A DNA stretch of 60,072 nt from an uncultured Candidatus Saccharibacteria bacterium (GTDB taxonomy: Bacteria > Patescibacteriota > Minisyncoccia > Phycocordibacterales > DATGWK01), in NCBI GenBank assembly GCA_964442475.1, contig CAYTZJ010000001.1, positions 1-60,072 on the forward strand. The letters are read 5' to 3'. This document shows positions 1-31,414 of the stretch, piece by piece. The translations under genes and the position numbers were made by a program. How positions within the stretch are numbered: the stretch's first letter is position 1; each line of letters starts with the position of its first letter. The notes beneath the pieces were generated by a model, which saw nothing but the letters and a program-made list of their open reading frames with translations, searched no databases and was not told the DNA's origin.

Positions 1-1139
1 GTTCTGGTAGAAATGCGATCAATCACATGATCAACTCGAAAGTTCGGGGTGTAGAGTTTATTGCGATCAACACTGATGCGCAAGATCTTCACAATTCTCT
101 TGCAAAGAAAAAGATTCACATTGGTAAAAATCTAACTCGTGGTCTTGGTACCGGCATGAATCCAGAACTCGGCCGACGTGCAGTGGACGAGGCCCAAGAA
201 GAAGTTCGCGAAGCAATTGCTGGCGCAGACATGGTGTTTATTGCGTGTGGTGCAGGTGGAGGCACAGGTTCTGGTGCTGCGCCTCGAATTGCTCAAATTT
301 CAAAAGAACTTGGAGCTCTTACTGTTGCCGTCATCACAAAACCATTTTTCTTTGAAGGTCTACAACGCATGCGTATTGCCGAACAAGCAATCGAGGAACT
401 CCGAAGTGTTGTTGATGCAATGATTGTTATTCCTAACGATCGACTTTTAAGCATCATTAGTAAAGAAACAACTGCAAAAAGCGCATTTGCGATGTGTGAT
501 GAAGTCTTGCGCCAAGCAGTCGAAGCAATTTCCGATCTTATTACAACTCCAGGTCTCATCAATATCGACTTTGCTGACGTCAAAGCGATTATGGAAAATG
601 CCGGCCCCGCACTTATGGGTATCGGTAGCGCAGCTGGAGAAAAACGAGCTGAGGAAGCAGCAAAAATTGCTATCAATTCCCCTCTTCTTGAACTTTCTAT
701 TGCTGGAGCAAAGGGTGTTCTATTCTCTATCGCGGGTGGTGACGATCTCACCATGTTCGAAATTCAAGACGCTGCAAAAATCATCACAGAATCTGTTGAC
801 CCAAGCGCTAAAATCATATTCGGTACCATTCGAAACGACGGTATGAAAAAGGGTGAGGTTCGAATTACAGTTATTGCGACAGGCTTTCCTGAAAATGCCA
901 TCAGAAAATCAATTTTCCAGGAAACTTCAGGTAGTAAACCTATGGAAAAGAGAGTTGATGACGCTGAAAAGAAAGGAAAAATCTATAACACCATTCCAAC
1001 TCCAAGCACTACCTCTACTCCAGTAAAAACCGAGGATTCACAAACAGAAAAGAAACCCATCCCCGCTCAACCTGACGATATGGATGATGACGAGTGGTCT
1101 GCTGTTCCAGCGTTCTTAAGACGATCTAAGCTTAAGTAG
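1..1139 (+). CDS. ftsZ: Cell division GTPase FtsZ, 5' end cut by window edge
   Basis: ORF 27..1139 stays open in frame back to nt 3 (SGRNAINHMI). Tubulin signature GGGTGSGAAP, NDRLL, and a conserved C-terminal tail DDDEWSAVPAFLRR. Confidence 0.95.
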   Translation, partial: SGRNAINHMINSKVRGVEFIAINTDAQDLHNSLAKKKIHIGKNLTRGLGTGMNPELGRRAVDEAQEEVREAIAGADMVFIACGAGGGTGSGAAPRIAQISKELGALTVAVITKPFFFEGLQRMRIAEQAIEELRSVVDAMIVIPNDRLLSIISKETTAKSAFAMCDEVLRQAVEAISDLITTPGLINIDFADVKAIMENAGPALMGIGSAAGEKRAEEAAKIAINSPLLELSIAGAKGVLFSIAGGDDLTMFEIQDAAKIITESVDPSAKIIFGTIRNDGMKKGEVRITVIATGFPENAIRKSIFQETSGSKPMEKRVDDAEKKGKIYNTIPTPSTTSTPVKTEDSQTEKKPIPAQPDDMDDDEWSAVPAFLRRSKLK

Positions 1140-7972: not shown

Positions 7973-10159
7973 CTATGCATGTGGCCACTGTTCGACCATC
8001 AACATAGAACCTTTTGATGTTGGTAATAGTGACCAAATTTCCTCTGTTACAAACGGCATGCATGGATGAAGAATTCGCAATGATGTTGTGAGTATAGTGT
8101 ACAAAGCATGTTGACGCGAAAGTTTTATCTTCTCGTCTGTTCCATTGAGAATCGGTTTTGATTCCTCAATAATTTTATCTGCAATCTCAGTCCATATATA
8201 CTGATACATTTTTTCTGCAGCAATATGAAGACGATAATCTTCGTACTCTGATGTTACTTCAGCCACAATTTCATTGAGACGTTCAAGAAGCGTTTCATCT
8301 ACCTTCGTAAATGAAACTTTTTTATCAAAATTGACTCCTTCAGAATTTTCGAGAACAAATCGGCTAATGTTCCAAATTTTATTAGCAAAATGCTTATACC
8401 CCTTAACTTTATTTTCATCGAATTTCACATCATTACCAATCGCTGTACCCGACAAAAGTCCCATACGTAACGCATCAGCACCGTATTTCTTTATAAGTTC
8501 AAGTGGATCAATACCATTACCTAAGGATTTACTAAATTTTCGACCCTGCTTGTCTCGAACCAAACCATGAATCATGACAGTTTTAAATGGTACTTGTCCA
8601 AGATGAAAACCACTCATCAAAATCATACGAGAAACCCAAAGTGGCAAAATCTCATATGCTGGTGACATGAATGAGGTTGGATGAAACACGTCAAGATCTT
8701 TGGTTTTTTCTGGCCAACCGAGTGTAGAAAATGTCCAAAGTGCGGAAGAAAACCATGTATCAAGCACATCTTCTTCTTGTTTCCAGCCGTCGCCTTTTGG
8801 GGGAACAACGTCACAATAAACCTCATTGTTTCGGTACCAAACTGGAATTCGATGACCAAACCAAATCTGACGTGATATACACCAATCACGCAAATTTTGT
8901 ACCCAATGAAAATAGGTTTTACTGAACCTTTCTTGAGGCATATGTACTGCACCACCTTCGACAACCTTTTTCATCATCTCTCTGAGAGTAATCTCTGAAC
9001 CAGTTTTAATTCCCGGAATTTCTGAATAAGGAATTGTGAATGATTTATTAACACCAATCCACCACTGAAGTTTTGGTAACGGTTCGACAACAGCGCCTGT
9101 GCGCTCTGATGTAGAAATATTCTGCATTATATCCTCCTCTTTTTCTAAAAGACCTTGAGATTTGAGCCACTCAACAACGATTTCTCTTGCTTCAGTAGTT
9201 TTTTTACCATTAAGTGGTCCATCGACAGTCATTTTTGCATACTCATTGATAACTTGAGGTTTTGGTAAATTATTTTTTTCAGCAATTTCCCAATCAGTGT
9301 GGCTATGAGCAGGTGTCACACCCAGAGCTCCAGTGCCGAATTCCATCTCTACAGATGAATCTGCAACAATTTTGATATGAATTGGCACCTCACAAAAAAC
9401 CGCATCATATTTTTTACCCACAAATCTTTGGTATCGAATATCGTCAGGATGAACAGCAACAGCAACATCACCAACCTTTGTTTCCGGACGAGTTGTGGAA
9501 ATAGAAATTGGAAAATCTTTTGAATATTTGAATGTGTAGAGCTTGCCCGAACGTTCTTCATGAACAACCTCATCATCAGAAATGGTTGTTTGACCTTTTG
9601 GATCCCAATTCACAATTCTATTTCCGCGATAAATCAGTCCGGCATCATACATCCGTTTAAAGGCAGTTGCGACAGCAATATTTCTTTTTTCATCAAGCGC
9701 ATATGCGTATCGTGACCAATCGAGTGATGCACCCATAGATCGAATTTGGTTTAAAATTATACTTTCGCTGTTTTTTGCATATTCCGAAACTCTTTTCACC
9801 AATTCATCTCGTCCAATATCATGACGACTTTTACCTTCATTTTTTTGAATGTCTTTTTCAACACGAGCTTGAGTTGCAATTGCAGCCGAGTCTGTACCAG
9901 GAATCCATAATGTCTTTTTACCTCTCATTCTTTGAAAACGCACGATCGAGTCTTGTAATGAATCCTCGTAAGCATGCCCAAGATGAAGAACACCAGTCAC
10001 ATTTGGTGGCGGCAATACGAGTACAAAAGATTCTTTTCTATTACCAGGTAGATTATCTGGATTAAAATAGCCGGAATCCTCCCAACGTTTGTAGATTAAT
10101 GTTTCTGTATCCTCAGGATTGTACGGCTTGAGAAATTTTGGATTTAAATTTTTAGCCAT
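7973..10159 (-). CDS. valS: Valine--tRNA ligase
   Basis: HIGH motif (HLGHA) and KMSKS motif (KFSKS). Start moved to Met20 (MAKNLNPKF) of ORF 7973..10216. Confidence 0.9.
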   Translation of the reverse strand: MAKNLNPKFLKPYNPEDTETLIYKRWEDSGYFNPDNLPGNRKESFVLVLPPPNVTGVLHLGHAYEDSLQDSIVRFQRMRGKKTLWIPGTDSAAIATQARVEKDIQKNEGKSRHDIGRDELVKRVSEYAKNSESIILNQIRSMGASLDWSRYAYALDEKRNIAVATAFKRMYDAGLIYRGNRIVNWDPKGQTTISDDEVVHEERSGKLYTFKYSKDFPISISTTRPETKVGDVAVAVHPDDIRYQRFVGKKYDAVFCEVPIHIKIVADSSVEMEFGTGALGVTPAHSHTDWEIAEKNNLPKPQVINEYAKMTVDGPLNGKKTTEAREIVVEWLKSQGLLEKEEDIMQNISTSERTGAVVEPLPKLQWWIGVNKSFTIPYSEIPGIKTGSEITLREMMKKVVEGGAVHMPQERFSKTYFHWVQNLRDWCISRQIWFGHRIPVWYRNNEVYCDVVPPKGDGWKQEEDVLDTWFSSALWTFSTLGWPEKTKDLDVFHPTSFMSPAYEILPLWVSRMILMSGFHLGQVPFKTVMIHGLVRDKQGRKFSKSLGNGIDPLELIKKYGADALRMGLLSGTAIGNDVKFDENKVKGYKHFANKIWNISRFVLENSEGVNFDKKVSFTKVDETLLERLNEIVAEVTSEYEDYRLHIAAEKMYQYIWTEIADKIIEESKPILNGTDEKIKLSRQHALYTILTTSLRILHPCMPFVTEEIWSLLPTSKGSMLMVEQWPHA

Positions 10160-10522: not shown

Positions 10523-13500
10523 ATGAAAACTCCACTATTTTTTTCTTTGAAGCAAAATCTTGGCACAAGACTTTTTGTGCTTATTGTTCTTGTATCTATT
10601 GTCATTCCTCAGACTTACACACTTTCAATTCCATTGGCATTTGCTGATGATGAGACACAAAACACAGAGTCAAGTAACACAGGTGCTAATGTTGAAAGAG
10701 AAACTGAAAGTTCAACTGATGAAGCAGCAAATAATTCCCGTGTTAACAATGCAACGGATAATATTGAAAAAGACGTTATTGATACAAACTCATCAGTTGG
10801 TTCCATCGATCATTCTTCAATCGAAATAGTTAATATTTCTAATAATGAAAGCATTAACGATATTTCTACGATTCCTGTCACATCAGTAAATGTGAATCCA
10901 ACTCTAGACATCAATAATTCTTCTGAAGATAATGCGAACAATTCTGGAAACACTACACACAACACATCAACAAACAACAACGATTCATCACACGAAACCG
11001 AAGATATTCAGCCGGAAGTAGCGGGGGCAAACAGCCTAACCACTACCCCTCAGACGGGCTCAATTACCGTATGTAATGTAATTGCAAAAGCTGATGGACA
11101 AATAGTCTCTTCACCAGCGGGTCTTCCGAATGCCGCTTTTTCATTAAATCTTCGAACACGAATCGGCACAGGAACCCCAATTCAAACCTCTCCTTCAATT
11201 CAAGAGTTTGATTTCTACTCTCATTTATTTACACAAACAACCCCTTCGCCAATTCCTGTGAGTGCACAGTGTATAAAATACAAAAACTTTGAGCTCAGAC
11301 AATACATCTACTCTCCGGTTACAGTAACATCTGAAATCAGCAATAGATGGGAAACACCGAAATACAACGATCAATTCATTACTTCTGTGAATTCGGTTAA
11401 TAGTTTCTACCCGTACAGCCAAGAAATGTTTGATAATAATCAAGCAAATGACGGACAAAGAAACGAAGATGCTGACGGCATCATCACTCTTACAGCCAAT
11501 CGACCAAACCGAGTTTTGGTTATTCTAAACAAACTCAAACCAGTCACACCACAAACAGGTTCAATTACTGTTTGTAATATGATTATTACTAAGAATGGTC
11601 AAATTGCCACGAGCTCTGCGGGTCTACCAGCTGGACAATTTAATATCAACTTTTACCCACTATCGAGTCCACAAACCCCTGTTCAAAACTCAGCCTTTAA
11701 CACTGCCACGTTTAATCCAGCAATACCTTCAGTTTCTGGACTTGCCGCAGAATGTAAGAAATATGAGCACCTACCACTCCAAGCGTATGTGTATACTCAA
11801 GAAACTATTACCGGTGCATCAGATGAAACATGGCAAACACCAAAATATAACGACGGGTACATATTACCTCCAAACCAACTTAATAACTACTTCCTATACA
11901 GCCCAGAATCCTTCGATAACGATCCCTCAAATGACGCTCTAAAAAACGAGGACTCCGACGGTATTATTACCCTAAACGTTAACCGACCAGACCGAGTGTT
12001 GGTTGTAATGAATAAACATAATTTGGTCGGGGGTGAACCGCCACCAGCCTGTGCAAACGGCATAGAATTATCTGTCACAGAGTTTGGTACAGCCGTATCA
12101 CAGGGTCGAATTACTTACTCACCTATTGTTGTTGATGCAGGAACCACAACCGCGACCTTTACGATACATAACAATACAGGTTGTACAGCACCCGTTACCC
12201 TAACGAGTTACAAAATGTTTGATCCGCCACCCGTTCTTTCGACTCAGGTGCTCTTTGATCGAGCAGGCGTAATTCAAGCAACATCAACCACAATCCTAAA
12301 AGTAAGAATTCCTAACTGTGCTGCTCAAATTGACGCATGGTTTGGAATGGCACCAGAATTCTTAGTTGATTCAAATCCATATTCCTACCCCTCTGTTCCA
12401 CATGTTCTAAACGCGTTACTTGTTCGACAAGACCAATCATGTAATACAAATCCAGTTAATACCCCACCCACAATTACCCTTATTGGAAGTAACCCTCTTA
12501 GCATTACCAAAGATTCAATCTTTACTGACCCTGGAGCAACAGCAACAGATGTTCAAGATGGAAACCTCACAGCTTCTATCGTGGCAACAGGTACCGTCAA
12601 TACAAGCGTGGTTGGTACATACACTCGCACTTATACCGTTACCGATTCTGGTGGTCTTTCTGCTTCAACAACTCGAACAGTCAACGTTACAAGTGGTGGT
12701 GGTCCAACAAATAACCCACCAACAATCACAGTTCTCGGTGATAACCCAATGATTGTTTATATTCACACAACTTTTACTGACCCTGGAGCAACAGCAACGG
12801 ATCCAGAAGACGGTAATCTCACAAGCCAAATCGTTACAACCGGCTCTGTGGACACCAACACTCTTGGTAGTTACACAATCACCTACACCGTTACAGACTC
12901 TAAGGGTGTTTCGGTTTCAGCTAATCGTACTGTAAATATTATAGAAAACACAGACAACAATGGTGGAGGCGGAGGTGGAGGTGGTAGTCGTCGCAAAAGT
13001 TCTGGAGGCAGAGTTCTCGGTGTAGAGACCGGTCCTACTGCGTGTTTTTATCTAAACGACTATCTCCGACGTGATCTCAATAATGATCAAGGTGAAGTAT
13101 TGAAACTTCAATTGTTTCTAAAGTATTTTGAAAATGAAGGCAACCTCATTGCAACCGGTAACTTTGACCAAGCTACCTTCGATGCCGTATCACGATTCCA
13201 AACAAAGTATTCAAGTGACATATTAAGTCCATGGGGCTATAACGCACCAACTGGTTATGTTTATATTCTGACAAAAAAGAAAGTAAACGAAATATTCTGT
13301 AAAACAGCGTTTCCAATAAACGCACAACAGCAAGAGGAGATTAATAACTTCAAATCCCTCATTCAGGGCCTTCATGATCGTGGTTTAACTGTTCCCACAG
13401 ACGGTACAATGATGATTGATGATCATGTAATAGATGTAAAGGACACAGTTGGTCTGGCAACATCTACCAATCCAGAAAATCCAAATTCGGAAATGGTTGT

Positions 13501-13891
13501 AAAGGACAAAATGATAAAGGACAAAATGAATACGGAACATTTGAGAGCTGTAGCAGCAGCAATCTTCAGCATACCCAAGGATCGAGAAACGATTTTACAA
13601 GGTATTTATTTCCTTCTAATAGCGCTCATCGCAATCTATCTCTTTACTGAAATCATTGTCGGTAGCCAAGACTTGAGTAAGCTTACGAAATACCGAATAC
13701 AATCTCGAAAGGCCACGGGCTACTTTGCAGGTCTCATTGTTGCAATGATTGCGGCAATCTGGTACCAAGCATTCAGCATCATCGTTCCACTCTTAGTTCT
13801 TGCGATTATTTCTGGAATATTCCTTGCGTGGACAATGACAAAAAAATCAGACGACGACACAATCAATCTTCCTCCTTCTTCAAACCGATAA
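10523..13891 (+). CDS. Giant multi-domain cell-surface protein
   Basis: N-terminal signal/TM. Two ~170-aa internal repeats (TPQTGSITVCN...W-TPKYND...DGIITL). Two DUF5011-type Ig-like repeats (PPTIT..GDNP..FTDPGATATD..DGNLT). Gly8 run, peptidoglycan-binding-like domain, three C-terminal TM helices. Confidence 0.75.
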   Translation: MKTPLFFSLKQNLGTRLFVLIVLVSIVIPQTYTLSIPLAFADDETQNTESSNTGANVERETESSTDEAANNSRVNNATDNIEKDVIDTNSSVGSIDHSSIEIVNISNNESINDISTIPVTSVNVNPTLDINNSSEDNANNSGNTTHNTSTNNNDSSHETEDIQPEVAGANSLTTTPQTGSITVCNVIAKADGQIVSSPAGLPNAAFSLNLRTRIGTGTPIQTSPSIQEFDFYSHLFTQTTPSPIPVSAQCIKYKNFELRQYIYSPVTVTSEISNRWETPKYNDQFITSVNSVNSFYPYSQEMFDNNQANDGQRNEDADGIITLTANRPNRVLVILNKLKPVTPQTGSITVCNMIITKNGQIATSSAGLPAGQFNINFYPLSSPQTPVQNSAFNTATFNPAIPSVSGLAAECKKYEHLPLQAYVYTQETITGASDETWQTPKYNDGYILPPNQLNNYFLYSPESFDNDPSNDALKNEDSDGIITLNVNRPDRVLVVMNKHNLVGGEPPPACANGIELSVTEFGTAVSQGRITYSPIVVDAGTTTATFTIHNNTGCTAPVTLTSYKMFDPPPVLSTQVLFDRAGVIQATSTTILKVRIPNCAAQIDAWFGMAPEFLVDSNPYSYPSVPHVLNALLVRQDQSCNTNPVNTPPTITLIGSNPLSITKDSIFTDPGATATDVQDGNLTASIVATGTVNTSVVGTYTRTYTVTDSGGLSASTTRTVNVTSGGGPTNNPPTITVLGDNPMIVYIHTTFTDPGATATDPEDGNLTSQIVTTGSVDTNTLGSYTITYTVTDSKGVSVSANRTVNIIENTDNNGGGGGGGGSRRKSSGGRVLGVETGPTACFYLNDYLRRDLNNDQGEVLKLQLFLKYFENEGNLIATGNFDQATFDAVSRFQTKYSSDILSPWGYNAPTGYVYILTKKKVNEIFCKTAFPINAQQQEEINNFKSLIQGLHDRGLTVPTDGTMMIDDHVIDVKDTVGLATSTNPENPNSEMVVKDKMIKDKMNTEHLRAVAAAIFSIPKDRETILQGIYFLLIALIAIYLFTEIIVGSQDLSKLTKYRIQSRKATGYFAGLIVAMIAAIWYQAFSIIVPLLVLAIISGIFLAWTMTKKSDDDTINLPPSSNR

Positions 13892-21780: not shown

Positions 21781-21852
21781 GCTTACTTTGATGAAATAAT
21801 ATACAGCTATTATCTCAATTTTACCGAGTATTTTCAATCGATCTCTCAACAC

Positions 21853-21877
21853 AAAACCCCGCTTTAGGCGGGGTTTT
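21853..21877 (-). terminator. Intrinsic terminator downstream of rnpB
   Basis: Minus strand reads AAAACCCCGC ctaaa GCGGGGTTTT. Confidence 0.75.
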
Positions 21878-21884
21878 GTAATTT

Positions 21885-22302
21885 GTGTTTCTGGGTCTAT
21901 AAGCCGAATTCTGTCCAGCAAAGCTCCGTGAGGAGCAAAGCGTGGATAACTATTTATCTAGCCCCGTGATTACTCTCGGGGTCAAGCGGCACACTCACAA
22001 CCTTTCGGTTCGAGTCCGGCCTTGCACACAAGTAAGGATTTAGCCGTTGCAACCGATACGTTACCGTACCGACTCATCCCGCGTGGCTTTCAAAGAAAAC
22101 CATGGGAGCTGTAGTTCTTTCGTTCTACAGCGTCTCTGTTCGCACCTCGTGGATCACTCCAGACGGGCGTTACCCGCTACCCTTCCAATTTTGCCCATCG
22201 CAGGTGATGCAAAATTGGTATGTGTTCGGACTTTCCTCCAAACGTCTCCATTTCGCCCCTTGGGCTATACAAGACGATGGCAGTTATCCAACCCAGAACA
22301 AA
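21885..22302 (-). ncRNA. rnpB: RNase P RNA (bacterial type)
   Basis: Minus strand contains GGAGGAAAGUCCGAACAC (CR-I, plus-strand 22224-22240) and GGACAGAAUUCGGCUUAUAG (CR-V, plus-strand about 21898-21917). P1 pairing joins UUCUGGGU (5') to ACCCAGAA (3'). Confidence 0.85.
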
Positions 22303-22335
22303 AAAATAGTAACATAAAATCAGAACAAAAGCAAA

Positions 22336-25300
22336 CTACGGCTGGGTTGAGCCACTATCATTAGAAACATCAGCTGAGTCTGAGTCTGAGTCTGAGTCTG
22401 CAGAATTTTCTGAACGGTCTGAAACACTGTTTCCATTATCGCGTGAAGGTTCAACTTGGGTTTGTGCGTCTTGATCTGAATCATTTGAAACATCAGTTTG
22501 TGGAGAATTCTTTACATCATTTTTTAAATCTCCAGCAACCCCATCGATAAACGAAACGTCTAAAGTGGCCGAAACATCATGTGCAGTGTCACCCGTCGTT
22601 GGAATACTTGGTGCAACAGGCTCAGCATCGCGTCCGTCATTAGGAATTTCCTCATTAGAGTTTTGTCCACATTCGCCAGCAAAATTCTTAAGTTTACCCT
22701 TAATAATTTTTACACAATACGGTTTCCCAGTCGCTTCGTCATAAAGTGTGATACCTGTTGGCTTTTCTGAACTACCAACGATAAGCTCTCCAACTAAAAC
22801 ATTTTTAAACTTGGCAACTGACTCAGAAAATGAAATACCAAAATCTTCGAGAGTTTGGAACGGATTTGACCAAAGTCCGCCACCACCATTCCCAATACGA
22901 ATCTGTGATTCAACCGCAGCAAGTCGTTCCTCGATAGAATCGAGTCGCAACTGTTGCGCCTTTGCGACACCGAGATTAAAGACGGAAAGTTTATACACAT
23001 CAACATCACCGTTTGCAGTAAGAATTTCGCTTGGAGCATCGCTCGCCAAAATTCCAAGTCGATTTGGGGTGCCTGTTTCATCGTTAAATCTAAAGGTTGA
23101 AATATCAATTTCAGTAAGCTTGTTTGCAAAGGCAACTAAATCTTCTTCTTGGAGTTTATTAACATTTGTAATGTCATCTTGGTCTGCCTTAGCCACAAAA
23201 CCTCGTGCTCCAACATCACCAGAGACTTGAAGTTTGTACAACGAATCATTTACACCAATTCCAACATTTCCAGAAGTATTAATTGTGAGTGAAGGAGATG
23301 TTGTCGGCGCATCATTAATAGAGATTCTTTGAGCAATTTCCTGGACTGATTTAACAGTGTCAGAAAGAATTGCTCGAACGTTGATATTTACCTCTCTACC
23401 AGCTTCGTTATACAACGCATATCGAGGATCTACTTGAGACACGTCTTCGGCAATAAAACCAATATCTCTTTTACCATTGTAATATCCTGGCTTGTAGTTA
23501 AATTCTACGGGATTGAGACTCATCAATCGTTCAAGGGATGACTGACCATCAAGTGCACTTATATTTTCCTTTACAGTACGAGTTGAAGAATCACATGTTG
23601 TTCCCCAAAGAAGATAGTGTCTAGTTGCATCAGTTTTTATACATGCAAAATATTCACCCCCCCCAGCTTCGACGAGATTATCGAATGCATAATGATACGT
23701 ACTTGAATCATCGATCGTAAGAAGTGCGGCATTACCAGCACCATTAACATCACCAAGCTGGATCACTCCTGTTGAATCATTAGAACTTGCATCAATTAAT
23801 ACCGCACCACCACTTGAACCCAAGGATGTTCCATTAAGATCAATAGTATAGTTTGGAGTCAAAGTATTAAAACCTAGGGAACCGTTACTAGCAACTACAA
23901 ATGTTGAACTATTTGTATTAATAACAAATGCAGGAGTAGTATCGTTATTTTGGATGGACAATCTAGCGAAGGGTGATGTTGTACCCACTCCAACTTTTCC
24001 ATTTCCAAGAACATTAAAGAGTGTTGCGTTTGTAGAGCTTGCTACTGCAAAGAGAGAGGTTGAGCCAGCAGAAGAAGTTGTTTGGACTGATAGCTTTGAA
24101 AATGGCGAAGATGTGCCAACACCGACGTTACCCTCAACAATTAAACCGTTTGTTGGTGCAGCGATAGTGTCGTATGTAGTACCGTATGAACCGTTACCAG
24201 AAACAGAGAGTTTTGACGCTGGAGACTGTTCACTAATTCCAACAGATGAACTATTGATTGTAATTACTCGAGTACTTGCACCAGTACCCAAATCAAGACG
24301 TGAGCTTAAACCAACTCCACCCTCAATAAAGGCTTTTTGTGTACCGTTTTGTCTCAAACTAATGTTTGGAACCTGACTGTTTGAAGAATCGTTAATTGTT
24401 AGATTAACTGCTCCAGCATTCTCAATCGTTGCAGACCCCCCAGACACATGAAATTTTGATGTGGGTGCTGCGATGCCCACTCCAACGTTCCCGTTCTGCA
24501 ATGCATACAAACTAGACGCAGCAGTAAGGCCACCTGCAAATGTTGAAGTTGAAGTTGTCGTAAATGCACTAAAATAAGAAGATGCTGATTGCCCCGCCAC
24601 CGAAAAGTTCGTATAAGGCGAAGATGTACCCACCCCAACATTACCACTAGCCAAAATATTAAAAAGTGTTTGTTTTGTAGAACTTGCCACTGCAAAGAGA
24701 GATGTGGTTGCAGAAGCAGATGGGCCCTGTAACGAAAATCGTGAAAAAGGAGAACTCGTACCAAAACCAACCTTACCCTCAACAATTAATCCATCGGTAG
24801 GAGCATTTATGCTGCTATATGTATCTCCAATCGCCCCATTACCTTTTACCGACAACATTGAACCAGGCGTAATAAATCCTCCAATACCAACTGCAAGTGG
24901 ATTTGTAGCTGCATCAACATTTTTAATAAAAATTCCCGGAGCATTTAGTGACCCACCATACTGCCAATTTAAATCATTATCAAAAATAGCAATTTGTTGA
25001 GTACCGTAAACAGAATCGTGTGCCCAAATACCAGTCTCATTACCCGCTCCAACACTATCATTGGCTGTTCCAGCATAAAGTCTTGCTGTTCCGCCTGTTG
25101 GGTCACCTAAATATGCCCCAGTACCCCACACATCAAGAGAAACTTCTGGAGATGAAGTGCCAATACCAACATATCCACTTGAACCATCAACTACAAGACC
25201 AGTTAAACCGTCATTTGTCCCATAAAAGAATTTATCAGTACCAGTCATATACGCAGAAATAAGCCTGTCATCATTGGTTATAAGACCAATTTCATCACCA

Positions 25301-26064
25301 ATTGAACCTGATGAAATAGCTGGACGAAAGGCACCTTGATATCCGCCAAGATAAGACAACGAACTATCAATATCGAGTGATGCGTTTGGTGTAGAAGTTC
25401 CAATTCCGACATATCCTGTCGAAAGAATACTGAATGCCGACAAACCACCGGTACCGAAAAATTCTGCAATCTTACCAGCACCATACTGTGCAACGCTCAA
25501 TGAAGTTGTAGCACTCGATGTTGCATTCGTACTGTCATTTCTAAAGAACTGTTCACTCGAAATACCATCGAGTCTGCCTGCTTCAAAAGCCGCTGGAACC
25601 GCCCCAAGAACTTTTCTTGGGCTCATTTCTCCGTCCCATAAAGGCGATCCACCAGAACCCCCAACTTCTACACCAAGGTAGAGTGTTTGATTAAAATCAA
25701 TATTTGTAAGCGGAGTTGAACTACCAAGCATGACGCTGAAAAGACCGTCAGTAACAGTAATGCGATTACCAGCAACAGTACTTCGATCTTCGGTCCAAAT
25801 TGCTGTGGTTGTTGCAGCAGTTGCAGAAGTCAAAAGCCAGAATTTCATATGATAAGTACCATCAGGCACAGCCACATTTGAAGCATTTGTGAGCTTACCT
25901 TGGTAATTAATTTGTGCATTAAAAGCCGCTTGTGCTACCAAGGGTGCACCAGCAGAAATGAAGCCATCAATTCCTACATGGCCTACCAAAACTACAACAA
26001 TGAGAGAAAATACCAAAAATGTTTTGGCTGTGAGAACTATTACTTTTTTTATTGTGTTTTTCAC
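22336..26064 (-). CDS. Tail-fibre-like giant surface protein with endosialidase-chaperone (peptidase S74)-like modules
   Basis: N-terminal TM. At least 9 degenerate repeats of the type (N/Y)VG(I/V)GT(S/T)SP...(L/F)-V. Module ENISALDGQSSLERLMSLNPVEFNYK...IGFIAEDV. A second, weaker module ISTFRFNDE...LGILASDAPSEIL. Coiled coil and an acidic SDSDSD tail. Confidence 0.7.
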   Translation of the reverse strand: MKNTIKKVIVLTAKTFLVFSLIVVVLVGHVGIDGFISAGAPLVAQAAFNAQINYQGKLTNASNVAVPDGTYHMKFWLLTSATAATTTAIWTEDRSTVAGNRITVTDGLFSVMLGSSTPLTNIDFNQTLYLGVEVGGSGGSPLWDGEMSPRKVLGAVPAAFEAGRLDGISSEQFFRNDSTNATSSATTSLSVAQYGAGKIAEFFGTGGLSAFSILSTGYVGIGTSTPNASLDIDSSLSYLGGYQGAFRPAISSGSIGDEIGLITNDDRLISAYMTGTDKFFYGTNDGLTGLVVDGSSGYVGIGTSSPEVSLDVWGTGAYLGDPTGGTARLYAGTANDSVGAGNETGIWAHDSVYGTQQIAIFDNDLNWQYGGSLNAPGIFIKNVDAATNPLAVGIGGFITPGSMLSVKGNGAIGDTYSSINAPTDGLIVEGKVGFGTSSPFSRFSLQGPSASATTSLFAVASSTKQTLFNILASGNVGVGTSSPYTNFSVAGQSASSYFSAFTTTSTSTFAGGLTAASSLYALQNGNVGVGIAAPTSKFHVSGGSATIENAGAVNLTINDSSNSQVPNISLRQNGTQKAFIEGGVGLSSRLDLGTGASTRVITINSSSVGISEQSPASKLSVSGNGSYGTTYDTIAAPTNGLIVEGNVGVGTSSPFSKLSVQTTSSAGSTSLFAVASSTNATLFNVLGNGKVGVGTTSPFARLSIQNNDTTPAFVINTNSSTFVVASNGSLGFNTLTPNYTIDLNGTSLGSSGGAVLIDASSNDSTGVIQLGDVNGAGNAALLTIDDSSTYHYAFDNLVEAGGGEYFACIKTDATRHYLLWGTTCDSSTRTVKENISALDGQSSLERLMSLNPVEFNYKPGYYNGKRDIGFIAEDVSQVDPRYALYNEAGREVNINVRAILSDTVKSVQEIAQRISINDAPTTSPSLTINTSGNVGIGVNDSLYKLQVSGDVGARGFVAKADQDDITNVNKLQEEDLVAFANKLTEIDISTFRFNDETGTPNRLGILASDAPSEILTANGDVDVYKLSVFNLGVAKAQQLRLDSIEERLAAVESQIRIGNGGGGLWSNPFQTLEDFGISFSESVAKFKNVLVGELIVGSSEKPTGITLYDEATGKPYCVKIIKGKLKNFAGECGQNSNEEIPNDGRDAEPVAPSIPTTGDTAHDVSATLDVSFIDGVAGDLKNDVKNSPQTDVSNDSDQDAQTQVEPSRDNGNSVSDRSENSADSDSDSDSADVSNDSGSTQP

Positions 26065-26073
26065 AAAAAGTTT

Positions 26074-27645
26074 TTATTGAAGAACTACATTCTCTGGTTG
26101 GGTCATCTGTTGCTTGCGATGACGATGCGCAAGTACGAGAATCAAAGCAGACAAAAGAATCAAAAGAAACCAGAGATAATTGAATCGATTATCACCTTCA
26201 CTAAATACATCAGGAATCTTTGCAATGATTGCACCACTAAGTGAAGCGAGACCTTGATGTTTGTAATCAAGAATCGCTAACGCGAATTCATACTTACCTG
26301 GTCTTTCAAACGCTGCAAGATTTGCCTCATAGGCAGTCTTGTCTTTGTTTACCCGAAGAAGAAACGAAAATGTTTTATCTTTATCTTCTGGGTCATACAT
26401 CGTGATCGCAATTGTTTTTAAGATTTCTGGAATTTTGTCATAGTCGATCGAAATCGTCAGACTTCTGTCGCCACGAACCTCAACAGTTCCTGAAACAATT
26501 GGTTTTTTTACTCCGTCCTGAATAAAATTAAGATCCCAGATTGAGAGCGACTTAAGCAATGGATCGATCAGATCAGAAGGGAGTTTGAGAATGTCAGCAA
26601 ACAACTGAGGTGAACCTGAACCGGTACCATCGAGAGACAACCTAATATCTGTGACCGAACCGGATGAATAATTTCCTACGAAATCTTTAGCAAATGCTGA
26701 GTAGTAATATGTCTTACCCGGTTCAACATTGCGATCTGTAAATTCTTCTGCTCGCCCTTCATAAATCACCTCGCCTTCACTTGGATCTCTTGGATAGAAG
26801 ATTGGAGATTTAACAATTCTTACTGATTCAAAATCAGTGTGAGGATTACGCCATGTAAGCAACACGTTGCCGTTCTTTTCTGTTGCTTTTAAATTTGTAA
26901 CGTTCTCTGGCGGATTAGAATCTGGAAGCGATAAGGTGTAGAAATCCTGATTGTCTATTACTCGTTTTCTTTCATAACCATCTACAAGCTCAATTTTGAA
27001 GAAATAATGTGTACCCGGCACAAGATCTGTGAGACGAATGACATGATCTTTTTTATAAAGATCACTTGCAAGACTGCCCACTTCAAAATCTTGAGTTTTG
27101 CCCCACCACACGAGAGCTCGCACAGGCACATTCGTTCCAAAGCTAATCAATGCTTCATTAAAGTCAGGTGCCACATTGAGATACAAAAGCGTAATCACTT
27201 GCTGGCCGCTTGTAGTACCACCGCCAACTGGAGTTGATACTGGAACATCAAATGTTGTAGCGGTTGATGAAGCAGAACGTGCAGATTCATTGTTTGCAGC
27301 ATCGATTGCAGAAACGGTATAGGTGTATGCGGTGTTTGGAGTCAAACCCGTATCAGAATAAGTCGTAGCTCCTCCTGATAATCCAATATAATTGTTGTCA
27401 CGAAACACTCGATAATCCGTGACAGCCGTATCGTCTGTTGAAGCAGTCCATGAAAGATCAATTTGGCTTGTTGAAACGGCAGTCGCGCTTAAATCTGTTG
27501 GTACAGAAGGCGCTATAAGGTCCGGCGTATCGTCGATAAGTTGAGAGACGATAAACTGATCTTCTGCTGCATGTGCATATGAATACGCAAAAACAACAAA
27601 AGTGATGATTGTGAGACTTATAGCAATGAACTTAATGATTTTCAT
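26074..27645 (-). CDS. Fibronectin type III domain surface protein, C-terminally anchored
   Basis: Signal peptide. FN3 signature PTDLSATAVSTSQIDLSWTAS...YRVFRD...TAYTYTVSAIDAANNES. C-terminal TM helix followed by HRHRKQQ. Confidence 0.75.
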   Translation of the reverse strand: MKIIKFIAISLTIITFVVFAYSYAHAAEDQFIVSQLIDDTPDLIAPSVPTDLSATAVSTSQIDLSWTASTDDTAVTDYRVFRDNNYIGLSGGATTYSDTGLTPNTAYTYTVSAIDAANNESARSASSTATTFDVPVSTPVGGGTTSGQQVITLLYLNVAPDFNEALISFGTNVPVRALVWWGKTQDFEVGSLASDLYKKDHVIRLTDLVPGTHYFFKIELVDGYERKRVIDNQDFYTLSLPDSNPPENVTNLKATEKNGNVLLTWRNPHTDFESVRIVKSPIFYPRDPSEGEVIYEGRAEEFTDRNVEPGKTYYYSAFAKDFVGNYSSGSVTDIRLSLDGTGSGSPQLFADILKLPSDLIDPLLKSLSIWDLNFIQDGVKKPIVSGTVEVRGDRSLTISIDYDKIPEILKTIAITMYDPEDKDKTFSFLLRVNKDKTAYEANLAAFERPGKYEFALAILDYKHQGLASLSGAIIAKIPDVFSEGDNRFNYLWFLLILLSALILVLAHRHRKQQMTQPENVVLQ

Positions 27646-27656
27646 ATGAACTGTAC

Positions 27657-28436
27657 CTAAAGAGTCACTGCGGTTAGGGTCGTGGTAGCAACATACGTAT
27701 CTTCGAGTTTAAAGCTCGAAGTTCCAACCGTAACTCGAAACTTAATTGTTGTTATCGTTCCAGACGGATGATTCGATGAACTGCGAGACGCAATTGTTTG
27801 ATTCGTCGTACTGAGTCCATCCCAACATTTGTCAGCAGAATCAGTGCCAGTAACTGAGCCACATGATCCCAACTCGTCCAAAAAGTCTGAAACAATATCT
27901 GATCCTTCCGGTGAAAATCCAAAACGTGCTTCGTCTGCTGGAACTGTGAAGTCATAGTCTGGAAATCCAGATGGCGCATAATCCGCAATCGTGTCAGAGG
28001 TTGTGTTGCCCTGCATTGCTGGACTCGAACTCGCCTTTATATAGAGTGCGTAACCAGATGGACTATCAGTCACAACCGTCACCGCGGTTGAACCATTTGA
28101 TGTGCCGCCAGTGATACCACCAAGCGAAGGACTCATTGCAACATCATCAGCCACATCATCAAATGCAATATATGTCTCGTGCATTTGCTGATAACCAGCA
28201 TGGAGTTTGTAGCTTGTACTATTTGAATCTCCAGTAGCAACTTCACCGCCCGTGCTTTCCAAACGATAACTTGCAGACTCACTCAAACCTCCACCAAAAT
28301 TCAAACTGTCACTTTCAATTTTGTAGTTTGAGCTCGACATTCCAACGGCAGACACCCAATCTACATTGCTAGCCAAAGCAAGAACCAAAAAGGTAGCGAC
28401 GATACTTATACCAATTGAGTTCTTAATGGTTTTCAT
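27657..28436 (-). CDS. Secreted beta-rich surface protein, paralog A (WxL-like?)
   Basis: Signal peptide and SxNYxxES repeats. Shares a block SPSLGGITGGTSNG..V.V.T....SGY...IKASSSPAMQ and a CW-GLST...Y-ATTTLTA C-terminus with ORF 29407..30075. Confidence 0.55.
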   Translation of the reverse strand: MKTIKNSIGISIVATFLVLALASNVDWVSAVGMSSSNYKIESDSLNFGGGLSESASYRLESTGGEVATGDSNSTSYKLHAGYQQMHETYIAFDDVADDVAMSPSLGGITGGTSNGSTAVTVVTDSPSGYALYIKASSSPAMQGNTTSDTIADYAPSGFPDYDFTVPADEARFGFSPEGSDIVSDFLDELGSCGSVTGTDSADKCWDGLSTTNQTIASRSSSNHPSGTITTIKFRVTVGTSSFKLEDTYVATTTLTAVTL

Positions 28437-28440
28437 TTTT

Positions 28441-29397
28441 CTATTTCTTCTTTATTTCGAATCTTGTGACGACAAACCGCAAAGCAAGAATCAAAACAAA
28501 AACAGTAGCAAGAACACCGAGTGCGATTTTCCAAGGAATGACCCAAAAAGAAATCTGCATCGTATCAACAATGTCTCCATAGCCTCTATTAATAGAAGCA
28601 ACGGCAGTATATCGACCGAACAAAAACGGACGATTCCATGAAATTTCCCTTAATCGCACAGACTGTGGCAAGGAAAACCACGGATCAACCTCAACAAACC
28701 CAACCTCTTGCCCGAGAATATTTTTGATTCTAATTTCACCATACGGATTAACGTACACAGAACCATTATTCTCATAAAGAAGTCGCATACCGATCGGACC
28801 GCTACCATAGAATTTTTGTCCTTCTACAGTACTGAAACCCGAAAGTCGACCTTCTTCATTAACTGGACCTGGAACTTTGACAAAGAACAACACACCGAGA
28901 CGAGAAACAATTGCTGCTGATTGTGGGCTTGTGGCCTCACGTTCTGTTGTACTCACAAGTACACTGCCGTAGTGTCCTCCTGGATCTACATCGGTTGGCA
29001 CATTAACAGTGACCGGAATTGTCGCTTTTTGACCATTTTCAAGCTCGAACGTAGACGATTCAAACTTCAAAAAATCTTTGAGCGAATATGGTCCACGATC
29101 ATCACCCAAAAGAACGATTGCTTCATTTGGATTTCTCGAACCAGTAAAATCTTCTACTTCGAGATGAAAAACTCTTTTTCCACCTGTTCGGTTTGAAACT
29201 GTAATAGCGGTTGTTTTACTTTCACCAGCCGCAATTTCAATTTCTATCTTTCCGGGTCCAACCACAAAATCCTGATACTGTATATTTGCAACATCGATAC
29301 TCTCAACCTTATACGCGGCAGATGCAGAAATTGGCACAAAAAACGCAATTATCAGACTTAGAGCAACTATGATTTTGGAATATCTGTTTAGGTTCAT
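28441..29397 (-). CDS. DUF916/DUF3324-like cell-surface protein with C-terminal TM anchor
   Basis: Signal peptide, two beta-sandwich-like halves (VPTDVDPGGHYGSVLVS; NNGSVYVNPYGEIRIKN), and a C-terminal TM helix plus basic tail. The architecture is recalled from Firmicute WxL/Csc clusters. Confidence 0.45.
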   Translation of the reverse strand: MNLNRYSKIIVALSLIIAFFVPISASAAYKVESIDVANIQYQDFVVGPGKIEIEIAAGESKTTAITVSNRTGGKRVFHLEVEDFTGSRNPNEAIVLLGDDRGPYSLKDFLKFESSTFELENGQKATIPVTVNVPTDVDPGGHYGSVLVSTTEREATSPQSAAIVSRLGVLFFVKVPGPVNEEGRLSGFSTVEGQKFYGSGPIGMRLLYENNGSVYVNPYGEIRIKNILGQEVGFVEVDPWFSLPQSVRLREISWNRPFLFGRYTAVASINRGYGDIVDTMQISFWVIPWKIALGVLATVFVLILALRFVVTRFEIKKK

Positions 29398-29406
29398 GTT
29401 GAAATA

Positions 29407-30075
29407 TTAATTGGTTGTTGCAGTAAGGGTTGTGGTTGCCTTATAGACACCCTCTGTAATAAGCGAACCAGAATTGATAGTGAGCTTAAAGGCAATTGAC
29501 GACGTTGACCCAGACGCCGAAGTTGCTGTTGTTCGAAATATTGTTGATGTTGCCGTGGTCGAAAGACCATACCAACACGAGCCCATACCTCCGGTATCAG
29601 CAGAACCGGTGTTGCAAGTTGACGCACCATCATCCTTGAATTTTTGTGCCAAATCAGCAGTTGTACTTGCCGAAACGCTATAGCCGAACTCCGCACCAGC
29701 AGGAACAGAGTAAGCAAAATCCGGAACACCAGCAGCTGCAGGAGTGTAATCAGGAATAGAATCTGTTGATGTATCATCTTGCATCGCTGGACTCGAACTT
29801 GCCTTGATCGTCATGGTGTAACCAGACGAATCGTTAGTCAGTACAACAACTGTAGTTGTACCGTTTGAGGTACCACCAGTGATACCACCAAGTGACGGTG
29901 TCATCGTCACATCCTGTGCTGTTGTAGCGAAGGAAATTTCAGATGTAATCGTCTGACTGACTATGAATTGATCCTCAATTGCAAGACCCAACGCAGGCTC
30001 AGCGATGACAAAAATCAACGCAAACGCCATTGTTAGGACAACCGCACCGAGGAAAGAATCTTTTAATTTTTTCAT
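29407..30075 (-). CDS. Secreted beta-rich surface protein, paralog B (WxL-like?)
   Basis: Signal peptide, EDQFIVSQ motif after the predicted cleavage site, and conserved blocks shared with 27657..28436. Confidence 0.55.
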   Translation of the reverse strand: MKKLKDSFLGAVVLTMAFALIFVIAEPALGLAIEDQFIVSQTITSEISFATTAQDVTMTPSLGGITGGTSNGTTTVVVLTNDSSGYTMTIKASSSPAMQDDTSTDSIPDYTPAAAGVPDFAYSVPAGAEFGYSVSASTTADLAQKFKDDGASTCNTGSADTGGMGSCWYGLSTTATSTIFRTTATSASGSTSSIAFKLTINSGSLITEGVYKATTTLTATTN

Positions 30076-30123
30076 GTTAATAAATTAATGCTACTAATCT
30101 CCACAATAAACGCATTCGGGCTT

Positions 30124-31113
30124 TTAAGGTTCTTCACCATCCTTAACTGGAACCATTACGTATAAATATTCTTGATCGTTTTTGTTTTTGAAGACTGGTT
30201 TGATCAAACCAGAAGTTCCTGTTTCGTCAGGAACGATTTTAGCTTCATCTGAAAAATTATTTTCTACGTACGCCTTAACATGCGCATTAGCATCAGGTGA
30301 ACCAGCAGATGGAACAACTACCAAACCGGATTCATCGCTTTTCTCGTTCTGCTGTGACCAGAAAAACGGTCGACCAATTTTTTGTCCTGTTACTGCAATA
30401 AAACTATTGACTCTCGTGATTCTGATTTGTGTCCCATTCACTAGATCAGAAATTTGTTGATCGAGATACATACCAATCGACGAGAATACATGTGACGTAT
30501 ATGCAACTGAACTCACAAGTTCAGATCGATAATTTTTAATGTGTACCAAAGAACCAGAGATTTGATTTTGAACAGCACTTATTTGGACACCACCCAAATT
30601 AATGTGCGATAGAAAATTTGATTTCTGATTGCCACCAATAACATTTGGCACAACAAAAACTAAAAGCAACACGACCACCAAAACACCACCAACAATTCTT
30701 TGAGCAAATACACTCGTTTGACGCTTTGCTTCTTTTCTATCAAGAAAGTTAATAGCTGCCTGATGGAAAGACTTGTATGACAATTCAGGATTAATACCAA
30801 AACCAAGGGGGTTGGTAATCGAGTTCGACATTGTGGCTGCACCAGCCCCAGCAGAACTATTGAAATTACTAACCTCAGAATTCTTTTGATAAATCGAGAT
30901 TCGTCCACGTGGCGTCAAACTTGCAGTTGTTCGATGGGCAAGAAGGGATTCTTCGGAAACAAACCATGATCTACCGACACGTCGGCAATCAAGTAAACTT
31001 TTTCGGCACAACTGTCCGATATAATCGGAATTATAGCCAGTTATTGAACTAGCTCGGCTTGCCGAGATATATTTTTTTCCTTCAAAAATCAATTCACTAC
31101 CCATGCAAATCAT
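30124..31113 (-). CDS. Membrane-tethered helix-turn-helix protein
   Basis: N-terminal excisionase/MerR-like HTH (ISASRASSITGYNSDYIGQLCRKSLLDCRRVGRSWFV), one TM helix (IVGGVLVVVLLLVFVV), then an extracytoplasmic domain. The start is ambiguous: 31176, 31113 or 31104. Confidence 0.6.
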   Translation of the reverse strand: MICMGSELIFEGKKYISASRASSITGYNSDYIGQLCRKSLLDCRRVGRSWFVSEESLLAHRTTASLTPRGRISIYQKNSEVSNFNSSAGAGAATMSNSITNPLGFGINPELSYKSFHQAAINFLDRKEAKRQTSVFAQRIVGGVLVVVLLLVFVVPNVIGGNQKSNFLSHINLGGVQISAVQNQISGSLVHIKNYRSELVSSVAYTSHVFSSIGMYLDQQISDLVNGTQIRITRVNSFIAVTGQKIGRPFFWSQQNEKSDESGLVVVPSAGSPDANAHVKAYVENNFSDEAKIVPDETGTSGLIKPVFKNKNDQEYLYVMVPVKDGEEP

Positions 31114-31414
31114 TATATTTTTTAGTAACAATTTTTTTTCAAAATTTTGGGGATAAATCAAAGAAACTTTTTGCACTAAGGATCACATTAAAAACATGGA
31201 TAAACAGTCACCATGAGGCTTATATGAGGTCATAATCCAAAATTCAAAAAAGATTAAAACGGGAGTTAACTTTTCTCCCTAAACTAATCAGTCAAAACTC
31301 TTAGTTTTAGAAAAAGTTTAAAACCAAATAAAATTAAAATGGGGATTACAAAGATTGATAGTCGTTATAAAAACAGTTACACTTTTTATATATCATTAGT
31401 AAGGTTTATATAAG

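Follow-up and report, generated by a model that had tools for sequence, protein, structure and literature searches.

A chromosomal tail-fibre-like gene with two intramolecular chaperone modules in series, at the end of an operon conserved across Paceibacteria

The fibre gene and its two chaperone modules

The 60,072-nt stretch analysed here (the window; contig CAYTZJ010000001.1 of the 628-kb assembly GCA_964442475.1, from an uncultured Candidatus Saccharibacteria bacterium) carries on its minus strand an open reading frame (ORF) for a protein of 1242 amino acids (aa) that resembles phage tail fibres and that we refer to as the fibre. Its GTG start lies 9 nt past the stop codon of an upstream gene encoding an fn3 protein and is supported by the basic KK(I/V)I N-terminus, which is conserved in orthologues. 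The gene is present once in the assembly, with one head and one of each of the two types of intramolecular chaperone (ICA) module described below. From N- to C-terminus, the protein has a hydrophobic signal, a conserved head, a shaft of GxGT-type repeats, two related C-terminal modules and a tail (Table 1). An earlier note, made from the letters of the DNA alone, had called it a tail-fibre-like protein with two chaperone-like modules outside any prophage; all of the peptides quoted there were located where claimed, and the tail-fibre likeness is borne out by matches to PHROG tail-fibre families across aa 459-915 (phrog_9942, 8e-16; phrog_18345, 3e-8; phrog_5481, 1e-7; phrog_1980, 2e-7). The whole protein had no match in NCBIfam, and a phmmer search against the PDB gave just a marginal match of a repeat to 8on4 (E 0.07). 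Annotation pipelines already pick up the S74 match, since the labels given to relatives include "tail fiber domain-containing protein" and "Phage tail fiber-like protein".

Table 1. Features of the fibre protein and of the genes upstream of it, in window coordinates
Feature	Residues	Window position (strand)	Remarks
Fibre ORF	1-1242	22336..26064 (-)	GTG start at 26064; stop codon 22336-22338
N-terminal signal	1-46	25927..26064 (-)	basic n-region, hydrophobic core, ...PLVAQA followed by AFN
Conserved head	47-215	25420..25926 (-)	INYQGKL...DGEMSPRK..VPAAFEA; Ig-like beta-sandwich plus short extension
Peptide INYQGKLT	52-59		head
Peptide LGAVPAAFEA	153-162		head
Variable shaft	216-760	23785..25419 (-)	10 GxGT(S/T)SP...L.V repeats; not conserved between positional orthologues
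Neck before module 1	761-826	23587..23784 (-)	ends ...TTC(824)DS(826); predicted scissile bond after Ser826
ICA module 1 (Peptidase_S74)	827-915	23320..23586 (-)	Ser827 nt 23584-23586, Lys832 nt 23569-23571
Peptide ENISALDG	833-840	23545-23568 (-)	
Peptide DIGFIAEDV	867-875		module 1
Linker with 11th repeat	916-950	23215..23319 (-)	GNVGIGVNDSLYKLQVSG
ICA module 2 (type B)	~951-1056	22897..23214 (-)	terminal long helix (QQLRLDSIEERLAAVE)
Dyad positions of module 2	960, 965	23185-23187, 23170-23172 (-)	Ala960, Ile965; dyad lost
Peptide ISTFRFNDE	988-996	23077-23103 (-)	
Peptide LRLDSIEERLAAVE	1039-1052		module 2
Gly-rich linker and conserved Cys-pair C-terminal domain	1057-1132	22669..22896 (-)	Cys1117, Cys1132
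Acidic Asp/Ser-rich low-complexity tail	1133-1242	22339..22668 (-)	ends ...GSTQP
Five upstream co-oriented genes		26074..31176 (-)	350, 222, 318, 259 and 523 aa; the 523-aa fn3 protein is adjacent to the fibre

The sole significant Pfam match of the fibre is to Peptidase_S74 (PF13884), at aa 827-881, with 48.1 bits against a gathering score of 22 (E 1.4e-12) and coverage of profile positions 1-55 of 58, and the chaperone-domain identity that had been proposed for module 1 is thereby upheld. A profile built from 20 homologous module-1 segments (alignment A4) matched the solved ICA domains 8jov (4e-17) and those of the S16 long fibre (6f45, 2e-10), the T5 L-shaped fibre (8hqz, 3e-9), MyRF (7dc3, 5e-9) and the GA-1 neck appendage (3gud, 1.5e-3). 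Ser827 and Lys832 are the only invariant N-terminal columns among these 20 sequences; they align with S587(A) and K592 of the MyRF crystal construct, and the Ser/Lys dyad is kept in 94 of 95 modules of this kind (type A). We also noted that Cys824 (nt 23593-23595), three residues before the catalytic Ser in the context TC..SS, is conserved in most type-A modules; we know of no such feature in phage ICA domains. For MyRF, S587A or K592A each abolishes cleavage, the bond cut is that between P586 and S587, N-terminal to the Ser, cutting occurs only in trimers, and the two residues are equivalent to S911 and K916 of endoNF (PMC8326128). By analogy, the predicted cleavage site of the fibre lies between Ser826 and Ser827.

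Module 2 is more diverged. Searched by itself, the segment falls below the PF13884 cut-off (14 bits, E 0.06), and BLASTP of module 1 against module 2 gave no significant similarity (E 4), the relationship being visible by profile methods only. A profile of 17 orthologous module-2 segments (alignment A1) matched the T5 fibre chaperone (8hqz, 8e-8) and MyRF (7dc3, 2e-3) as well as, over the terminal helix, trimeric GCN4 coiled coils; 14 of the 17 individually match PF13884 (best 4e-7), and hhalign placed the module-1-type and module-2-type alignments together with 97.2% probability (E 4e-11). The earlier suggestion of a second, more diverged copy therefore stands. The test of the Ser/Lys dyad proposed with it had a split outcome: both the profile alignment and an independent hidden Markov model alignment of 175 segments set Ala960 opposite Ser827 and Ile965 opposite Lys832, such that the dyad is present in module 1 and lost from module 2. 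Because Ser or Lys mutants of MyRF lose cleavage, module 1 is predicted to be competent for cleavage and module 2 to be dead. As judged from its residues, module 2 is a pseudo-ICA homologous to module 1 and predicted to be cleavage-dead.

Loss of the dyad is not the rule for type-B modules, with S..K kept in 126 of the 146 full-length examples elsewhere (typically reading FVNISTRxAKKDI). Fourteen of the 20 dead modules, the present one included, form one clade (support 0.87 with the dyad columns masked), within which the remainder of the module is well conserved, indicating selection for a non-catalytic role.

Distribution of the tandem in the family

A HMMER scan of 1.84 billion representative sequences with aa 915-1135 (repeat, module 2 and Cys-pair domain) returned 1581 clusters at E <= 1e-3, of which 60 reached E <= 1e-30; the proteins listed are between 103 and 7920 aa long, and in many cases the match spans nearly the whole query. 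Among the 119 first-round relatives of the fibre, 16 carry the module-2 segment. Tandem and dyad states were counted among 258 related proteins, 57 of which have ICA modules in tandem: a type-A module followed by a type-B module in 55, separated by one repeat in the aligned examples, and two type-A modules in the other 2. Both dyads are intact in 54 tandems (52 A-B and 2 A-A). The combination of an intact first with a dead second module was found in 3 (the present fibre, P0003 and P0013), to which the orthologue at locus L021, found separately from the 258-protein set, can be added; a further 17 proteins have a single dead type-B module only. The tandem is a habit of this Patescibacteria family and not an oddity. 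Its description as atypical holds for the phage records searched, none of which covers at least 80% of the tandem cassette, but not for the family itself.

The Cys-pair domain, the tail and a phage counterpart

The earlier note had also pointed to about 200 more residues and an acidic tail after the second module. The tail is there, with 20 Asp and 19 Ser in the last 110 residues and no sequence homologues among the 119 relatives, but what precedes it is a conserved domain of ~75 aa that also ends a phage tail fibre. This domain (consensus EKPTGITLYDE.TG.PYC...G.C, with Cys1117 and Cys1132 nearly invariant) is common to 43 of the 119 homologues, is predicted by AlphaFold2 (AF2) to form a beta-meander and has no relative in Pfam or the PDB. 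Bacterial versions always continue past it, by 75-240 residues: positional orthologues have acidic or Pro/Thr-rich tails of 75-120 aa, and other relatives have DUF5011-type immunoglobulin (Ig)-like domains. The latter follow the Cys-pair domain in P0014, P0052, P0088, P0078, P0090, P0093 and P0108, all with intact ICA dyads; located on the portion that cleavage is predicted to remove, these domains suggest that a shed fragment is able to function in its own right. The extreme C-terminus, ...GS(T/P)QP-stop (window 22339-22353 (-)), is common to the present fibre, the L021 orthologue (~10050) and P0013, and the acidic tail ahead of it cannot be aligned among the three; the shared end may be coincidental or may act as a short terminal signal.

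Searches of viral sequences gave a single counterpart of the Cys-pair domain. With tblastn against the phage collection, T5-like and cyanophage fibres matched over module 1 only, and a single-protein scan of viral contigs had no match. The Cys-pair alignment (A5), compared with 2.9 million viral contigs, hit one locus, L085 (IMGVR_UViG_3300009285_005118), where 8471-10132 (+) encodes a 553-aa tail fibre, P0260, on a contig that also has terminase, portal and major head genes. P0260 has an intact S74 domain (4e-17) and the Cys-pair domain at its very end, stopping 5 residues later, which places this domain at the chaperone end of genuine tail fibres. The N-terminus of P0260 is signal-peptide-like (MKKCRPTVSVILAGVSLGILLTPVTASA), which is unusual for a tail fibre.

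A model of aa 815-1140 was built with AF2 as a monomer on 22 sequences, with predicted local distance difference test (pLDDT) values of 73-94 for module 1, 78-86 for module 2 and ~80 for the Cys-pair domain, and with long helices at model residues 82-101 and 209-243. The best Foldseek match of this model in the PDB was the MyRF ICA domain (E 9e-4; template-modelling score, TM(target), 0.5).

Signal, head and shaft

Residues 5-40 are the sole hydrophobic segment of the fibre and had been read as an N-terminal transmembrane helix. An A-x-A site stands immediately N-terminal to the head in most of the 25 homologues listed, many of which have short canonical signal peptides. With this site directly before the head and no other hydrophobic segment in the protein, a Sec signal peptide is the likelier reading, and residues 1-46 are probably a cleavable one.

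The head is conserved, as the earlier note had said: it is common to 104 of the 119 top homologues and 49-78% identical across 35 that were aligned. AF2 models it as an Ig-like sandwich (pLDDT 80). Comparison with PDB sequences gave nothing significant, and Foldseek with the head model turned up no specific structural relative, its matches being generic Ig-like ones (best E 0.05 in the PDB and 0.012 in a viral library).

At least nine degenerate repeats had been noted before, and the motif [VL]G[IVFL][GSN]..P/S..[LFI].[VIL] in fact matches 11 times (mean 0.09 and maximum 2 in 2000 shuffles), with 10 copies before module 1 and 1 between modules 1 and 2. The shaft contains an internal 189-bp duplication (23972-24160 and 24617-24805, 71% identity), which shows that it grows by duplication of blocks. 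Positional orthologues are 58-67% identical over the first ~230 residues and 40-48% over the last ~250, and the central 650-1400 residues, unrelated or repeat-expanded, have only the repeat motif in common. At L021, from the closest species (operon proteins 77-94% identical), the main difference in the fibre is an additional, near-identical block of repeats, and both the intact-plus-dead tandem and the terminal ...STQP are retained. The L021 ORF (5866-10066 (+)), split in the record by a masked run of N, has three near-identical blocks of ~65 aa (TYDTIAAPTDGLIVEGKAGFGTSSPFSRLSVQGPSSAATTSLFAVASST...), pointing to a recent expansion of repeat number in the shaft. The gene was also considered as a target of a diversity-generating retroelement; this was rejected, as the only blastn matches of the gene in the 628-kb assembly were itself and the internal 189-bp duplication, with no template repeat.

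The operon and its chromosomal setting

The fibre gene is the last of six co-oriented genes, which form an operon beside gatB. Elsewhere in the window its neighbours are housekeeping and envelope genes (those for SecA, Obg, GatB, LepA, MurJ, TsaD, LeuRS and MurB); no phage genes lie within +/-20 kb, and the only PHROG matches among the neighbours are to fn3 and TPR domains. These neighbours and the conserved operon agree with the earlier placement of the gene outside any prophage. A prophage origin was rejected on the housekeeping neighbours, the PHROG survey of the neighbours and the conservation of the operon. The products of the five upstream genes, two of which have C-terminal hydrophobic anchors, are candidate membrane anchors and operon partners of the fibre.

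Positional orthologues P0003, P0005 and P0013 occupy the same locus in other metagenome-assembled genomes (MAGs). The order there is gatB, a small divergent MerR gene, genes for proteins of 341-343, 233, 319-328 and 259 aa, the fn3 gene, the fibre gene, TPR/Wzy, murJ and lepA; L001 and L003 have the same gene order. When species-representative genomes were scanned with the head alignment, 522 of the stretches that fitted the search patterns were confirmed, and locus counts were taken from the 80 best. All 80 are in Patescibacteria MAGs, titled Paceibacteria, Zambryskibacteria, Kaiserbacteria, Taylorbacteria, Nomurabacteria or "uncultured Candidatus Saccharibacteria"; the last title accounts for about half of them and comes from third-party (TPA) assemblies. 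Counting from the 350-aa gene towards the fibre, homologues of the five partners were found at 66 (g1, 350 aa), 47 (g2, 222 aa), 48 (g3, 318 aa), 60 (g4, 259 aa) and 62 (g5, fn3, 523 aa) of the 80 loci, g5 lying immediately upstream of the head-bearing gene, and gatB is close by at 43. The partners keep their order, and overall the operon is conserved at about 60 of these loci. About 16 of the 80 (within L005-L084) have a reduced form with only the first operon gene and gatB detectable.

The 318-aa operon protein (28441-29397 (-)), which carries a C-terminal hydrophobic anchor, weakly resembles WxLIP_PGBD (PF06030, E 6e-4; at 20 bits the match stays under the cut-off of 27), a hint of a WxL/Csc-like surface complex. 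Downstream of the fibre there is a long non-coding gap (21922-22335, 415 nt), and a strong hairpin with a 13-bp stem (ACAAAACCCCGC TTT AGGCGGGGTTTTGT) at 21851-21879, between the fibre stop codon and the next gene, is a possible bidirectional terminator. A 1122-aa surface protein encoded at 10523-13891 was compared with the fibre as a potential relative and showed no relationship.

A proposed working of the fibre

The observed domain identities and dyad states, together with the distribution of the family, its synteny and the non-phage context, lead us to conclude that the fibre is probably a chromosomally encoded, Sec-exported and self-cleaving surface attachment fibre of Paceibacteria, built like a phage tail fibre and produced from a class-wide conserved operon. 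We infer that the chain would be exported, relieved of its signal peptide between AQA and AF, trimerised, cut, docked and brought into contact with a target. The two ICA modules in series would bring three chains into register from the C-terminus, with trimerisation expected from the behaviour of the family; each module ends in a helix that could form a trimeric coiled coil, and folding of the repeat shaft would be nucleated there. Module 1 would then cut the chain before Ser827, giving a mature fibre of ~79 kDa (aa 47-826) and a shed piece of ~44 kDa (aa 827-1242) made up of ICA-1, one repeat, the cleavage-dead ICA-2, the Cys-pair domain and the acidic tail. The analogy with tail fibres and the pattern of conservation further suggest that the Ig-like head may dock the fibre to the membrane-anchored partners from the operon, and that the hypervariable shaft, which the cut would leave exposed as the new C-terminal end, may bind the target (host) cell.

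Several observations weigh against this picture. Positional orthologues P0004-P0008 and P0010 carry the dead module only, and the cassette must therefore be kept in their mature proteins, which suggests a role beyond transient folding and would make shedding in the present fibre odd. The subgroup to which the fibre belongs reads S-T-R-x-x-K, placing the Arg one position before that of the canonical S-D-x-R-x-K. At the other end of the protein, the hydrophobic core lies ~18 residues ahead of the AQA site, long for signal peptidase I, so the segment could stay a membrane anchor, and no cell-anchoring motif (LPXTG, transmembrane segment or lipobox) was found elsewhere in the fibre. Finally, the AF2 model is of a single chain, its predicted template-modelling score (pTM) is 0.38, and the orientation of its modules relative to each other is meaningless.

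The first of these points leads to an alternative that we hold to be distinctly less probable, in which there is no cleavage, both ICA modules serve as permanent nuclei of trimerisation and folding, and the conserved C-terminal cassette works as the distal tip of the mature fibre or as another point of attachment. It would fit the strong conservation of the 14 dead-dyad type-B modules in one clade, the orthologues that have a dead module without module 1 and so necessarily retain the cassette, and the tail that always follows the Cys-pair domain in bacterial versions and is absent from the phage version. It is hard to square with the dyad of module 1, present in 94 of 95 relatives and intact in the present fibre, L021, P0003 and P0013, and an intact dyad in a trimeric ICA that does not cleave lacks precedent among solved cases (PMC8326128).

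That the fibre is not attached to the cell at all, being released as a soluble or vesicle-associated trimer that acts, for example, as a phage decoy or a bacteriocin-like binder, seems improbable to us. Such a release would account for a probable cleavable signal peptide in a protein with no anchor motif elsewhere, and the same repeat, S74 and Cys-pair modules do occur in a phage. Against it stand the tight coupling to the operon (the 9-nt gap to the fn3 gene), the C-terminal hydrophobic anchors of two partners, and the extreme conservation of the head across the whole class, a better fit to docking on a conserved cellular structure. Least credible, and in our judgement very nearly dismissed, is a tail-fibre gene of a degraded prophage, a tailocin or a contractile injection system: the PHROG matches, the S74 domain and the "tail fiber domain-containing protein" labels of relatives all speak for it, but the 60-kb window has no structural genes of a phage, a tailocin or an extracellular contractile injection system (eCIS), relatives hold the gene at the same locus between gatB and TPR/Wzy-murJ-lepA, most of the 80 species loci have the upstream operon, a Sec signal is normally absent from virion proteins, and the assembly contains no further S74 or head copies.

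Significance

Patescibacteria are abundant, mostly uncultured and thought to live attached to other microbes. To our knowledge, the mechanism by which Paceibacteria attach is not known, and the locus provides a concrete candidate, a class-wide operon that ends in a phage-fibre-like gene whose conserved ends and swappable middle are the pattern expected of a specificity determinant. It also shows the self-cleaving intramolecular chaperone of phage spikes and MyRF used in series, and the natural clade of 14 modules that have lost the protease and kept the fold offers a system for separating the chaperone role from cleavage. Our literature search found no paper linking Peptidase_S74 to Patescibacteria and no description of the tandem ICA cassette, the dead-dyad clade, the Cys-pair domain or the class-wide operon context.

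A wider proposal, which we regard as speculative and rather unlikely to hold in full, is that the operon builds an attachment organelle derived from a phage tail fibre with which episymbionts recognise their hosts, that the double ICA brings about a two-step maturation in which the dead second dyad leads to a single 44-kDa product, and that cassettes are exchanged with phages. If so, the outer module, together with the Cys-pair domain, would register the chains and the inner module would cut them. In the clade of the present fibre, loss of the second dyad would turn two shed fragments into one larger 44-kDa trimeric product, perhaps with a function of its own; it might cap the tip until contact, or act as a released signal or decoy. 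Exchange of repeats, ICA modules and Cys-pair domains would link the host range of bacteria of the candidate phyla radiation (CPR) with that of their phages.

Comparison with known systems

The closest relatives of the fibre are in an unnamed family of Patescibacteria surface proteins (such as P0003, P0005, P0012 and P0052), with which it shares the signal peptide, head, repeat shaft, ICA module or modules, Cys-pair domain, low-complexity tail and operon context, and of which it is a plain member. What sets it apart is the intact-first, dead-second arrangement, restricted among the 57 tandems to the fibre itself, P0003 and P0013 (plus L021), most of the others having both dyads intact.

The phage tail fibre P0260 has the same elements in the same order, namely the GYVGIGTTSPATKLDV repeat, an S74 domain with the dyad (32% identity, E 1e-10) and the Cys-pair domain (35% identity, E 2e-10), but it has a single ICA and lacks both the head domain and the tail past the Cys-pair domain. 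The likeness to phage ICA domains in general (Peptidase_S74, PF13884; endoNF 3GW6, T5 8HQZ, S16 6F45, GA-1 3GUD) lies in module 1, which matches the family profile, has the Ser and Lys aligned and is preceded by a shaft of repeats with homology to those of phage fibres; profile comparison makes module 2 a diverged member of the family. Unlike the phage fibres, the protein is encoded by the cell in a conserved operon, has a predicted Sec signal and carries two ICA modules in series, the second without a dyad, followed by the Cys-pair domain and the acidic tail.

The AF2 model matches the ICA domain of MyRF/MYRF (7DC3) best, and the profiles of both modules hit this domain too; it is a precedent for an ICA that works outside virions and cuts before its Ser only when trimeric (PMC8326128). 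MyRF differs in having a single ICA, which frees a transcription factor from its membrane anchor, whereas the fibre has no C-terminal anchor and its functional part would presumably be the N-terminal product.

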